From: an uncultured Clostridia bacterium | Lineage (GTDB): Bacteria > Bacillota > Clostridia > UMGS1883 > UMGS1540 | Length of the DNA stretch: 64,000 bases | NCBI GenBank assembly: GCA_937966555.1 | Contig: CALCLY010000022.1 | Location: 212,729-276,728 of the forward strand | Direction of reading: 5' to 3' | Part shown: positions 35,246 through 57,671 of the stretch, piece after piece | How positions within the stretch are numbered: position 1 is the first letter of the stretch | How the letters are laid out: the number at the start of each line of letters is the position of its first letter | Translations under genes and position numbers: made by a program | Notes under the pieces: model-generated | The model's database searches: none | What the model was told of the DNA's origin: nothing | Seen by the model: only the letters and a program-made list of their open reading frames with translations

Positions 35246-35698
35246 TCACAGCTCTATTTTTACTATAGCGCGTTTCACTTTTCTTTCTTCACCGCATTTC
35301 ATCGACGGAATATGCGCGTCCTCTGGGAATGCAATGCAGAATTCGCCTGCATGCAAATGAAGCTGTGTAACCTCACCGTCCATAAAAATATAATCTTCTT
35401 CATCGTGATATTCACATATCGGCACAAGCGTTTTTATATCGGCATATCCGAGTATTTCTTCCCCTTCAATAATATAGTGAATATCTATAAATCTTCTGTG
35501 TGCTTCAAATTTTTTCGGCGTGCCGTCCGGCATAAAATCCGTCTTATCGCAATGCGACACGCATCCTCTTATTTTCCCGTCGCTCATTTCTTCTCCGACG
35601 GAATCGGGTGTCAGCGACTTTAAAAATTCAAACGCCTTTTTAAACTCTTTATGTACCGAAAAATACTTTTCACAATCTTTTATATTCCCCGTAATCAT
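35246..35698 (-). CDS. YhcH/YjgK/YiaL-family (DUF386) cupin protein, typically linked to sialic-acid or sugar-acid catabolism.
   Basis: 150 aa reading MITGNIKDCEKYF...HRRFIDIHYIIEGEE...EFCIAFPEDAHIP, matching the YhcH signature. GGGAGGA RBS. Confidence 0.7.
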   Translation of the reverse strand: MITGNIKDCEKYFSVHKEFKKAFEFLKSLTPDSVGEEMSDGKIRGCVSHCDKTDFMPDGTPKKFEAHRRFIDIHYIIEGEEILGYADIKTLVPICEYHDEEDYIFMDGEVTQLHLHAGEFCIAFPEDAHIPSMKCGEERKVKRAIVKIEL

Positions 35699-35715
35699 TT
35701 TAATCCTCCCGTATA

Positions 35716-36591
35716 TTAAAGCTCCCCTATTTCACGCATAATCTTTTCTATCTCAGCCGCGCCCTCCGAAGAACATTTTCCAAAATAATCGGGCGCAAAG
35801 TTTCCTTCCATCCCGAGCAAGTTCATAGAAACGGTAAATCCCTGCATAACTCCGTGTTTTGCATATGTATCACGAAGCAGCAATATATTATTCAGGTATT
35901 TAGCGCATTTGTCCATATCTCCGCTCTGTGCGCTTTTTATAAATTTTTCCGCATTTTTCGGCGTTGATGAGAACATACCGTCCAGAACTTTGTCAAGTCC
36001 GAAAGAAAGCGCTGCGTCAAAGCAGTCTATATTGCTGTAGAGCACTTCAAACTCCGGGATATTTTGTTTTATAAGCCTTCCGAGTGCCATATCTCCGCTT
36101 TTTATGCCTTTAATATTTTCGTGTTTTGCAAGGCGCTTTACCATATCAAATGTGATTTTGCATTTCGTAACGCCGGGCAAATCATATAAAAATATGGGCT
36201 TGTCGGACTTATCGGCTATCATTTCAAAAAAATTGCAGTGCACAGCTTCGCAATTTGCAAAATAAAACGGCGTTGTAACAACCGCTGCCGTAAAAGGACA
36301 ATCTTTAACGCGCTCAATTCTTTCAATAACCCTCTGAGCCGAGTTATCCATTGCCCCGACAAAAAGCGGTACTCTGCCGCCCACTGCCGCACTTGCCACA
36401 TAAACCGCCTCAGCATATGCGTTGTCCGGCACGGAAGCCTCCATTCCCATGCTGCCCATTAAAAGCAGTCCGCTTGCCCCGGCATCTATCTGCATATTTA
36501 TTTCTTTTTCAAGCGATTCCTTGTCGATGCTTCCGTCTTTTAAAAGAGGCGTTCCGAGGGCTGTGTAAAATCCTTTTTTAAGTTTTTCCAT
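35716..36591 (-). CDS. DapA/NanA-family class I aldolase, probable N-acetylneuraminate lyase or a 2-keto-3-deoxy-sugar-acid aldolase.
   Basis: YTALGTP N-terminus, GSMGMEA (GxxGE box) and Schiff-base lysine context NIKGIKSGD; 291 aa; AAGGAGAG RBS. Confidence 0.75.
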   Translation of the reverse strand: MEKLKKGFYTALGTPLLKDGSIDKESLEKEINMQIDAGASGLLLMGSMGMEASVPDNAYAEAVYVASAAVGGRVPLFVGAMDNSAQRVIERIERVKDCPFTAAVVTTPFYFANCEAVHCNFFEMIADKSDKPIFLYDLPGVTKCKITFDMVKRLAKHENIKGIKSGDMALGRLIKQNIPEFEVLYSNIDCFDAALSFGLDKVLDGMFSSTPKNAEKFIKSAQSGDMDKCAKYLNNILLLRDTYAKHGVMQGFTVSMNLLGMEGNFAPDYFGKCSSEGAAEIEKIMREIGEL

Positions 36592-36690
36592 TAATTATCT
36601 CTCCTTATTTTTAATCACTGAAGCCATTATATACTCGTTTATTAATAAAGTCAATGAACTAAAAAGACAACTTTTCAGAAAGATGTCCGT

Positions 36691-56800: not shown

Positions 56801-57564
56801 TTTGAGCCCATTACCATACTGACAATCTCATCACTTACCGAGTTTCCCGAAACGGATATATTCCAGTCGGTTTCGTTCATCTGCACGGGAGACAGCGGCT
56901 CGCTCCCCTCATAAACTTTCATATCGCTTATGTAAAATTCGGTTTTGCAGTTTTTCTGTATTCCCGTTACATGTATGCGAAACTGAGTCATGTCCGTAAG
57001 CATATTCTCCAACGAGATATCCGCGGCTCTCAGTTTGTAATTTACAAAAATCGAATATGTCTTCTTATCAAAATCCATAGCTATTGAAATTGTTGAAAAC
57101 TTTCCCTCCGGAAGCTGATAACCTATAGACGCAGTGTTTATATCAAGAATATTACCTTCAGTATCTATCCTGATAAGACCTTGTGATGTTCCGGCAGAAT
57201 CATACACATAGAAAATTTTGCTTGATCCTGCATTGAAATCCGGTCTTACGGTAGCTTGCCAGACAACTTTTCCGCTCATAGCATTGTCAAACTTTTTGTG
57301 CATTAAACAGTCGTTTGAAGTTTTAATCTGAAACAATACACTCTTGTCAGAAGCCCTCGGCACCTCAACAACACCCATAAAATTACCCTTGTCGTTATAA
57401 CTTGTTATGCTTGACGAGCCGGGCATGAATCCGTTGTCCACCGCATCAAATGTCTCGCCGTAATACCACTTGGGCTGTGATGCGGCAACAATGTTTTTAG
57501 GAAACACCGACAATGCCAGCGAGGCCGCCAATGCAACTGTGAAAAATCTTTTTATAAGTTTCAT
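53821..57564 (-). CDS. Large secreted heparinase II/III-like polysaccharide lyase carrying an N-terminal LamG-like domain, a copper-amine-oxidase-like stalk domain and a C-terminal F5/8 type C (discoidin) domain.
   Basis: Signal peptide [21 protein letters not shown]. The lyase core is paralogous to 51413..53824 ([47 protein letters not shown]). Stalk repeat [18 protein letters not shown]. The C-terminal discoidin-like block reads DTRYSCE...YVRITGTG. Confidence 0.8.
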   Translation of the reverse strand: [1247 protein letters not shown]

Positions 57565-57642
57565 ACTCTTTACATATCCTTTCTTTCAGATATTTGACAC
57601 AGTAACTAATTTTTTATCTGTTACATTTATAATCTTGATACA

Positions 57643-57671
57643 ATTTTACAATACTTTTTTTGAAAAATCAA
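57643..57671 (-). promoter_or_regulatory. Candidate sigma-A promoter of the lyase/SLH operon.
   Basis: On the minus strand: TTGATT, 17-nt spacer, TAAAAT, about 75 nt upstream of ATG 57564. Confidence 0.35.

Follow-up and report, generated by a model that had tools for sequence, protein, structure and literature searches.

The breakdown of glycosaminoglycans (GAGs) and other acidic glycans by gut Firmicutes is poorly known (PMC9067506). Firmicute GAG loci combine a lyase of polysaccharide lyase (PL) family 8, with or without PL12, a phosphotransferase system (PTS) or ATP-binding cassette (ABC) importer, an unsaturated glucuronyl hydrolase of glycoside hydrolase (GH) family 88, the enzymes DhuI, DhuD, KdgK, and KdgA, and a regulator, as in the Streptococcus pneumoniae-type hyaluronan locus and the putative PL8 loci of Hungatella, Enterococcus, and Lactobacillus (PMC9067506). 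A Gram-positive polysaccharide utilization locus (gpPUL) is defined by the presence of a carbohydrate-active enzyme (CAZyme), a transporter, and a regulator (definition quoted in PMC9067506). Another lyase family, PL35, has an endo-chondroitin lyase as its founding member (PMC11262172, PMC6442616), and its characterized enzymes cleave hyaluronan, chondroitin sulfate, and heparan sulfate, with one of them, GAGase III, also cutting alginate (PMC11262172, PMC12088678, PMC6442616). Here we describe a ten-gene block within a stretch of 64,000 nucleotides (the window) from an uncultured Clostridia bacterium (GenBank assembly GCA_937966555.1, contig CALCLY010000022.1, positions 212,729 to 276,728), which represents a concrete PL35-based, wall-anchored design in an uncultured yet recurrent human-gut species. 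On balance, we think it probable that the block is an operon-like surface glycan-utilization locus for an acidic polysaccharide of uronate and N-acetylhexosamine (HexNAc), GAG-like in character; candidate substrates include hyaluronan, heparosan, unsulfated chondroitin, and bacterial capsules of this kind. Such a locus would consist of two halves, a wall-associated depolymerization apparatus of the PL35 type and a recurrent cytoplasmic module of an FG-GAP protein, an aldolase, and a YhcH protein, together with a GH20 hexosaminidase.

The ten open reading frames (ORFs) are close-packed on one strand (minus), spanning 57564..35246, and are bracketed by the pyruvate kinase gene pyk (57831-59243, minus) and the D-Ala-D-Ala carboxypeptidase gene dacA (34019-35182, minus). 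The flanks carry housekeeping genes (alaS, pyk, dacA, ssb, smc, and ftsY). The genes, from the promoter-proximal end, are as follows (SLH, S-layer homology):

g1, 53821-57564, minus: 1247 aa, secreted, multi-modular predicted PL35-like lyase
g2, 51413-53824, minus: 797/803 aa, secreted predicted PL35-like lyase with a core and a ~150-aa C-terminal extension
g3, 48636-51416, minus: 923/926 aa, secreted; two shared modules and a C-terminal DUF2334-like domain
g4, 47185-48597, minus: 470 aa, secreted; two copies of the shared module
g5, 43842-47174, minus: 1110 aa, secreted surface protein; one shared module and three SLH repeats
g6, 41206-43845, minus: 879 aa, secreted surface protein; N-terminal SLH triplet and small beta domains
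g7, 38448-41180 (longer ORF to 41228), minus: 910 aa, cytoplasmic FG-GAP/VCBS protein
g8, 36691-38445, minus: 584 aa, cytoplasmic GH20 beta-N-acetylhexosaminidase
g9, 35716-36591, minus: 291 aa, predicted class-I (Schiff-base) aldolase of the DHDPS/NAL superfamily
g10, 35246-35698, minus: 150 aa, YhcH/DUF386 family

Like the Gram-positive GAG loci, the block encodes a surface or secreted lyase and cytoplasmic oligosaccharide processing in a Firmicute, with its genes clustered on one strand. Unlike them, it uses PL35-like lyases, SLH accessory proteins, an FG-GAP protein, a GH20, and an aldolase with a YhcH partner, and it has no importer or regulator of its own. The PL35 PULs of Bacteroidota differ from it in their host, which is not Gram-positive, and in having SusC/SusD, a hybrid two-component system regulator, and GH88, all of which are absent here. 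The cluster and the annotated ORFs of the window (beyond the cluster, those of at least 150 aa) contain no sugar transporter of the ABC, PTS, or major facilitator superfamily (MFS) type and no GH88, and the annotated ORFs of the window likewise contain no sulfatase, KduI/KduD, or intact regulator. The only transporter among these ORFs is an energy-coupling factor (ECF) S-component (63000-63605). The first-pass annotation, made from the sequence alone, had noted the lack of an importer and of an unsaturated glucuronyl hydrolase as atypical, and this holds for the annotated ORFs of the window, related loci having importers or GH88. It had also likened the cluster to a wall-anchored Gram-positive counterpart of a PUL. 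The secreted lyases, the two SLH proteins, and the four cytoplasmic enzymes agree with that picture, but of the three components of the published gpPUL definition only the CAZyme is present in the locus (two PL35-like lyases and the GH20); because transporter and regulator are missing, the locus falls outside that definition. By analogy, it may nevertheless work like a gpPUL.

The lyases link the block to a known enzyme family. Both g1 and g2 match PF07940 (Hepar_II_III_C) and PF16332 (DUF4962/DSE-like_N) above the Pfam gathering scores, are 51% identical to each other over 704 aa, and carry signal peptides, as expected for the two paralogous secreted polysaccharide lyases recognized at first pass; that proposal had been made to depend on a match to PF07940, which both proteins give above the cut-off. 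These two families are the entire Pfam content of g2. In g1, an N-terminal region without known fold, for which a sequence search of the PDB gave no match, is followed by a Cu_amine_oxidN1 domain (residues 280-371), the lyase core (~400-1100), and an F5/8 type C domain (1120-1221), the last being the discoidin domain that had been ascribed to one of the lyases. The best solved relatives of g1 and g2 are GAGase II (8KHV), GAGase VII (8KHW), and a PL35 chondroitinase (9O3Q), with E values from 1e-52 to 2e-39. For g2, the E values are 9e-52 (8khv), 1e-50 (8khw), and 2e-39 (9o3q), and only 3e-9 for PL15; the corresponding bit scores are 179, 176, and 139 versus 39 for the PL15 structure 3a0o, and PL35 structures lead every other PL family by >130 bits in the PDB search. 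The residues essential to GAGase II are the triad N192/Y246/H401 and the Mn2+ ligands H403/D405/D421/H457 (PMC12088678). The Asn/Tyr/His triad is kept in both proteins (N224/Y279/H427 in g2; N586/Y640/H788 in g1), as are three of the Mn ligands (H429/D431/D447 in g2; H790/D792/D808 in g1), and the fourth, H457, aligns to R480 of g2 in a gapped region of the alignment. The pair thus has the two-domain architecture, triad, and His/Asp/Asp ligands of the described PL35 lyases (GAGases I-VIII, the Victivallis endo-chondroitin lyase, and the Bacteroides caccae chondroitinase; 8KHV/8KHW/9O3Q), but at ~27% identity (27.5% over 579 columns for g2 and 8KHV) and in larger, multi-modular proteins, g1 having 1247 aa with Cu_amine_oxidN1 and F5/8-C domains. 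Both are predicted to be PL35-like lyases, and this placement favors a GAG or a capsule-like polymer as substrate. The g1 protein cluster has 133 member sequences in public assemblies.

The remaining secreted proteins appear to be accessories. Signal-peptide-like N-termini are present on g1 to g6 and absent from g7 to g10. A module of ~210 aa is common to g3 (29-246 and 253-459), g4 (23-240, strong, and 239-428, weak), and g5 (23-236). These proteins had been annotated as three paralogous secreted LamG proteins; their secretion and common module stand, but the LamG label is unsupported at the sequence level, as the three whole proteins and nine module sequences gave zero matches to LamG/Laminin_G models of Pfam at E<=10, and a profile (hidden Markov model, HMM) search of the module against the PDB found no match. 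The only faint matches came from g3, to SO2946-like_C (E 0.005) and Sialidase-like_CBM (E 0.1), both beta-sandwich families. The module also heads one lyase and two small proteins in a metagenome-assembled genome (MAG) of a goat-caecum Clostridia bacterium (locus L014) and is doubled in a 2067-aa homologue of g5 (L012/L013). No Pfam or PDB match was obtained for g4, and word-indexed homologue searches returned two proteins each for g3 and g4. In the C-terminal half of g3, residues 679-838 match DUF2334 at 23.7 bits, just below the Pfam cut-off of 26; an 898-aa paralogue that is 67% identical to g3 and occurs in the sister species and other strains has a recorded match to this family (PF10096), and the PDB sequence search with g3 gave no match. 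We take DUF2334 to belong to a glycoside-hydrolase/deacetylase fold clan, which makes g3 a possible, putative de-acylase or esterase.

Three C-terminal SLH repeats are present in g5 at ~925-1105 (PF00395, E 7e-34, in three stretches), in agreement with the triple SLH tether assigned to one of the supposed LamG proteins; its middle region of ~690 aa had no match in the PDB search. The description of g6 as an SLH-type surface protein could not be recovered from its own sequence (E 0.15, insignificant) but is borne out by its homologues, 28 of 37 sampled matching PF00395, and by its AlphaFold (AF2) model (predicted local distance difference test, pLDDT, 86), in which the first ~160 residues (triplet ~40-180) fall on the SLH trimers of SpaA/Sap (Foldseek probability 1.0, template modeling score ~0.7). 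The ~700 aa past the triplet have no Pfam model or solved relative, and the PDB sequence search with g6 gave no match. The g6 family is large, with 5710 representatives at E<=1e-3 and 1000 at 1e-30, mostly of ~870 aa and secreted. SLH-anchored xylanases and pullulanases occur in Thermoanaerobacterium, Caldicellulosiruptor, and Paenibacillus. The present proteins resemble these in that an SLH triplet would tether them to pyruvylated secondary cell-wall polymer, as in SpaA/Sap (PDB 6CWC and 3PYW), and differ in that the SLH domains are on the non-lyase proteins g5 and g6 and not on the lyases, whose association with the anchor proteins we infer. The extracellular components are all of known kinds, namely PL35-like lyase, SLH anchor, CBM32-like module, and Cu_amine_oxidN1 domain. 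The claim that the cluster is not a described system needs narrowing: no description was found in the literature searched (dbCAN-PUL and CGC being outside its scope), but the extracellular parts have precedents.

Among the cytoplasmic proteins, g8 was correctly recognized as a GH20 hexosaminidase, matching PF00728 with 77 bits and retaining the catalytic pair D239-E240 in the motif HVGLD239E240; its best PDB matches are GcnA of Streptococcus gordonii (2epk) and GH20C of S. pneumoniae (5a69), and its orthologues adjoin lyase genes in L119 (43%) and an FG-GAP gene in L021 (46%). The aldolase g9 matches PF00701 with 132 bits but is below all NCBIfam equivalog cut-offs (NF003164, 92 versus 281 bits; TIGR00683, 72 versus 382; dapA TIGR00674, 115 versus 206), and its PDB scores are near-equal for DapA (83 bits), YagE (71), and NanA (68). 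In an alignment with E. coli reference sequences, g9 keeps the Schiff-base Lys165 and Tyr137 of NanA, whereas the motif GSTGE is changed to GSMGM(E) and GxDE to 'NID-', with loss of the Glu; orthologues linked to FG-GAP genes carry the same changes. The equivalog cut-offs and the motifs rule out that g9 is a canonical NanA or DapA. The label NanA-like is accordingly right at the level of the superfamily, where Lys and Tyr are kept, and wrong below it, and g9 is predicted from its sequence to belong to a divergent subfamily of DHDPS/NAL class-I aldolases. Its neighbor g10 is a true DUF386 member, as had been proposed (PF04074, 107 bits; TIGR00022, 78.6 versus a cut-off of 45.5), and is below the equivalog for the N-acetylneuraminic acid (Neu5Ac) anomerase NanQ (NF040884, 70.7 versus 160 bits). 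YhcH of E. coli is a Zn-dependent anomerase that passes open-chain Neu5Ac to the class-I aldolase NanA (PMC8141875). By analogy, g10 is a putative ring-opening anomerase partner of g9, and the pairing of an aldolase with a YhcH protein suggests a substrate that is mainly cyclic, i.e., a 2-oxo-3-deoxy sugar acid. As in the NanA-YhcH (NanQ) pair (PMC8141875), a cytoplasmic DHDPS/NAL class-I aldolase is encoded beside a cytoplasmic DUF386 protein; the differences are that g9 is without the NanA motifs, g10 is sub-threshold, no other nan genes are present, and the partner is an FG-GAP protein.

The sole component of the cluster without functional precedent is g7, together with the family to which it belongs. 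It was described at first pass as a signal-less FG-GAP beta-propeller protein, and the FG-GAP_3 Pfam match, the propeller model (pLDDT 90), and the absence of a signal peptide agree: the protein is composed of tandem beta-propellers and beta-sandwich domains. The start is likely M17 of the 926-aa ORF; homologues begin at the same position, which indicates that the family is cytoplasmic. The family is kept at full length with 36-77% identity and has invariant His, Cys, Glu, Lys, and Arg residues. Its fold likeness is limited to generic seven-bladed propellers (LGI1, 6-phosphogluconolactonases, integrin alpha, and aldos-2-ulose dehydratase), and the whole of g7, with its two propellers, is matched by Foldseek to multi-propeller scaffolds of the DDB1 type. 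No match was found in the PDB sequence search or to the Pfam model of PL22, and the literature searched contained nothing relevant on an FG-GAP/VCBS enzyme tied to an aldolase or YhcH, or on a new CAZy family. PL22 oligogalacturonide lyase is a catalytic, metal-dependent beta-propeller that acts on sugar. With this enzyme and with aldos-2-ulose dehydratase (4A7K), g7, a cytoplasmic protein, shares the seven-bladed-propeller type and invariant His/Cys/Glu/Arg residues; the likeness is one of fold class, without detectable sequence relationship, and g7 has two propellers in 910 aa.

A scan of species-representative genomes identified 455 relatives of g7 in Bacillota, Chloroflexota, Verrucomicrobiota, Planctomycetota, Armatimonadota, and other phyla, including Clostridia (Christensenellaceae, Oscillospiraceae, Faecousia, and Monoglobaceae), Paenibacillus, and Caldilineaceae. 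The source species is not among the GTDB representatives matched by the g7 patterns, the best match being 56%. Genes of this family are often found beside DHDPS-family aldolases, AraC regulators, and ABC importers: of 77 loci, 18 have a DHDPS-family gene <=10 kb from the g7 relative, which is its immediate neighbor in 10, and parts of ABC importers were seen in 23 of the 46 g7-family loci of >=18 kb. With such clear partners (aldolase, AraC, and ABC importers), the family is a good target for enzyme discovery and, together with its aldolase and YhcH partners, the part of the system most worth following up. We tentatively propose, as an idea that we consider unlikely, that g7 would be the founding member of a widespread enzyme family and that g7, g9, and g10 would form a novel cytoplasmic route replacing GH88, KduI, KduD, KdgK, and KdgA. 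If true, this route would substitute for the GH88/Kdu pathway downstream of polysaccharide lyases in the processing of imported acidic oligosaccharides. In some genomes of Clostridia, Monoglobaceae, and Paenibacillus, FG-GAP genes form tandem arrays of 2-4 paralogues (L006, L029, L030, and L046) interleaved with 2-hydroxyacid dehydrogenase and cupin genes, a pattern suggestive of an enzyme family that has expanded and diversified in its substrates.

The source organism, a human-gut species, recurs in many metagenomes, among them the ENA assemblies BRIT20 and VALL22 and one sample each from the Hadza and from JGI. In those strains, the cluster is always located between pyk and dacA, with a 10- or 11-gene order. 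The eleventh gene, inserted between g2 and g3 (at ~51413) in many strains, encodes the 898-aa DUF2334 paralogue of g3; it is present in L001, L002, L004, L088, and L091 and absent from the source window and L005, which indicates that the paralogue was gained or lost within the species. In a sister species, whose g7 is 77% identical, all eleven genes recur at this locus in unchanged order. More distant genomes retain parts of the arrangement. A g5-like gene, g6, g7, and a YhcH gene are found together in L012/L013. In the goat-caecum locus L014, a lyase gene and a g6-like gene come first; an unrelated gene and a divergently oriented AraC regulator gene separate them from g7, which is followed by two lyase genes and genes for module proteins. 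The lyase homologues of L014 keep the PL35 triad and Mn ligands. In L018, a DHDPS-family gene, a g6-like gene, and genes for Cu_amine_oxidN1 proteins accompany g7. In L021/L022, g7 directly follows a canonical NanA-type aldolase gene with a divergent AraC gene alongside, and L021 also has the g8-like GH20. In Christensenellaceae, the genes immediately after g7 encode a g9-type aldolase (38-40% identity) and YhcH; in L007/L008, an Opp-type ABC importer is enclosed by the FG-GAP, aldolase, and YhcH genes, with a sugar-type two-component system ahead of them. Relatives of the g7 family were also found in goat, buffalo, and yak gut MAGs. Chance juxtaposition of the genes was ruled out by the synteny in the sister species and the partial synteny in distant MAGs. 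The ten-gene block is a real, conserved functional block, and the combination of its two halves has been kept across a narrow clade of gut Clostridia.

Searching metagenomes with the lyases yielded 166 more distant PL35-like genes of at most 39% identity, and 80 loci were kept for counting neighbors. These are mostly Bacteroidota PULs (SusC, 21 loci; SusD, 24; GH88, 18; hybrid two-component regulator, 11). One Gram-positive-looking locus (L119, on a human-gut contig) encodes an SLH protein, a g6-like protein, two lyases, and the g8-like GH20. The first gene of that contig (164-2329) encodes a secreted protein with CBM96 (carbohydrate-binding module) and Big_5 domains, possibly a glycan-binding accessory. 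A g1-like lyase and module proteins are encoded in L092, and L113 has lyases beside an SBP_bac_1 ABC importer.

The reading that we favor, utilization of a GAG-like polymer of uronate and HexNAc, is based on the PL35 relationship, the recurring GH20, and the F5/8-C module. The absence of a sulfatase among the window ORFs is consistent with an unsulfated polymer, and UxaB/UxaA-like hexuronate genes lie directly beside the sister-species cluster. Under this reading, g1 and g2 would cut the polymer outside the cell into unsaturated oligosaccharides, the shared module and the F5/8-C domain would bind glycan, g5 and g6 would retain substrate or enzymes at the wall through SLH binding to secondary cell-wall polymer, and acyl groups might be taken off by the DUF2334-fold domain of g3. 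The oligosaccharides would be taken up by an importer encoded elsewhere, as the regulation would be too. In the cytoplasm, the GH20 would remove beta-HexNAc, and g9, aided by ring opening through g10, would split a cyclic 2-oxo-3-deoxy sugar acid into pyruvate and an aldehyde. Since the usual GH88 step is missing, it must be supplied by another locus or by the FG-GAP protein, and g7 may perform this GH88-equivalent step of other GAG loci or another exo-acting step. Earlier, the target had been given as a GAG, mucin, or capsule-like glycan. Kinship to PL35 supports the first and last of these; mucin is disfavored, since the locus lacks a sialidase, g9 departs from canonical NanA, and lyases require uronates.

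Several points weigh against this interpretation, which draws on sequence and predicted structure. At ~27% identity to characterized members of a polyspecific family, the lyases do not fix the substrate. The pathway is incomplete as encoded, GH88, KduI/KduD, a transporter, and a regulator being absent from the window. A deacetylase-fold protein such as g3 is unexpected for host GAGs, and no role in pathways that follow uronate lyases is established for an aldolase-anomerase pair. FG-GAP, DHDPS, and YhcH genes occurred in 0 of the 80 PL35-like metagenome loci, so that the link between the two halves of the cluster rests on the narrow clade. Finally, a promoter-like site between g8 and g9, described below, allows that g9 and g10 may be a separate transcription unit.

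Four other explanations were weighed. The same machinery could serve a non-GAG acidic polysaccharide, such as the exopolysaccharide or capsule of other gut microbes, alginate, glucuronan, or a food-additive gum bearing acetyl groups, with g3 as a de-O-acetylase; we regard this as a genuine possibility, although clearly less probable than a GAG-like substrate. It would account for the DUF2334 deacetylase-fold domain on g3 and its paralogue and for the lack of a sulfatase, and it is consistent with the cutting of alginate by the PL35 enzyme GAGase III, with the action of PL15, PL17, PL33, and PL34 on alginate or gellan, with the altronate-pathway (UxaB/UxaA-like) genes adjoining the sister-species cluster, and with the relatives from goat, buffalo, and yak guts, where dietary or microbial glycans dominate. 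It fits less well with the recurrence of the g8-type GH20 by lyases or FG-GAP genes (in the window, the sister species, L119, and L021), which points to a HexNAc-containing polymer, with the nearest solved relatives being GAG lyases, or with the F5/8-C (CBM32-like) module on g1. Foraging on sialoglycans or mucin O-glycans, in which the GH20 trims HexNAc, g9 is a sialic acid lyase, g10 the anomerase, and g7 an intracellular sialidase-like propeller, is unlikely: g9 is without NanA signatures (92 bits versus a cut-off of 281), g10 scores 70.7 versus 160 bits for the Neu5Ac-anomerase equivalog, a GH33 sialidase, NanK/NanE, and a transporter for sialic acid are all lacking, and mucin O-glycans would offer two beta-eliminating lyases no substrate. 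What speaks for it is that the YhcH family is typical of nan operons (PMC8141875), that FG-GAP genes elsewhere adjoin canonical NanA-type aldolases, g8-like GH20, and BNR_2 genes (L021, L022, L025, L044, and L009), and that an AGE-family epimerase is encoded 20 kb away in the window.

A further alternative is envelope maintenance instead of nutrition: the lyases and SLH proteins would remodel or recycle the cell's own anionic wall polymer or capsule, in a locus that runs on into dacA. The gene dacA follows g10 by 63 bp on the same strand without a terminator, the locus is chromosomal with housekeeping flanks in all strains, and two SLH proteins and a Cu_amine_oxidN1 domain are typical of clostridial wall proteins. 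Yet no glycosyltransferases, flippases, or polymerases are nearby, a catabolic aldolase, the GH20, and modules of the glycan-binding type fit foraging, and the homologous FG-GAP/aldolase units are accompanied by ABC importers, AraC regulators, and two-component systems that sense sugars; a role in envelope maintenance is therefore judged improbable, slightly more so than sialoglycan foraging. Least probable is that the Hepar_II_III/DSE-like proteins are uronate C5-epimerases or non-catalytic binders instead of lyases. The Pfam name of PF16332 is now 'DSE-like_N', and dermatan-sulfate epimerase has the same fold and His/Tyr/His site as these lyases. Both paralogues and the L014 homologues, however, keep the full PL35 triad and Mn ligands (three of the four in g1 and g2), the characterized PL35 members are all lyases, and the proteins are secreted and have no biosynthetic context.

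The ORF coordinates confirm the ten close-packed, co-directional genes and the spacing described at first pass. The g1/g2, g2/g3, and g5/g6 junctions are 4-bp overlaps, the other gaps are 38, 10, ~25, 2, and 17 bp, and the sole larger intergenic gap is the one of 99 bp between g8 and g9 (36592-36690). The following signals were identified:

Promoter-like site before g1, 57643-57671, minus: TTGATT-17-TAAAAT, 9/12, weak; consensus match only
Terminator-like hairpin 3' of pyk, 57796-57760, minus
Promoter-like site in the g8-g9 gap, 36626-36654, minus: TTGACT-17-TATAAT, 11/12; consensus match only

A putative promoter had been placed at the head of the cluster, and a consensus match is indeed found there (57671-57643), just past the pyk terminator; an RBS-like GAAAGGA (ribosome-binding site) precedes the ATG of g1. 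The site in the g8-g9 gap is the best sigma-70-like match of the region, and as it is near-consensus, g9 and g10 may have their own promoter, independent of the upstream genes. No convincing minus-strand intergenic terminator was found within the block or between g10 and dacA, and a scan for cre boxes gave matches at chance level and none at the promoters. An Rfam search of the whole window at gathering thresholds returned zero RNA families, including riboswitches, tRNA-like RNAs, and small RNAs. With dacA 63 bp after g10 on the same strand and no terminator-like hairpin between them, readthrough from the cluster is possible. The G+C content at third codon positions (GC3) is 0.53 for g2 and g3 versus 0.36-0.44 in the other cluster genes and the flanks, an offset that suggests a different history for this pair, possibly a later acquisition.

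The sole regulator candidate in the window is a 123-aa AraC ORF with only the helix-turn-helix (HTH) domain (33624-33995, plus), located beyond dacA. It is a remnant of a 279-aa Cupin_2+HTH AraC gene that is intact in the sister species (L090, 17263-20855). There the AraC gene diverges from two genes located between dacA and ssb, one of the Mannitol_dh family (UxaB/UxuB-like) and one of the GD_AH family (UxaA-like, altronate dehydratase). These hexuronate genes are absent from the source genome at dacA-ssb, and a strong bidirectional hairpin (33657-33681) lies within the AraC remnant.

A second group of glycan-related genes is located at 2034-17364 of the window; its products are mostly without signal peptides, and it contains no transporter:

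Cu_amine_oxidN1 protein, 2034-4370
GH3, 4225-5889
LacI, 6023-7063
PGA_cap, 7080-8255
Beta-lactamase-fold protein
HAD hydrolase
DUF4838, 10764-12707
DUF11 protein
AGE-family 2-epimerase, 13862-15016
463-aa protein, 15046-16437
AraC, 16552-17364

Next to this group, the ORF at 17408-19051 (plus) encodes a secreted cysteine peptidase of the papain family (C1) with a fused lectin-like domain (PF18560).

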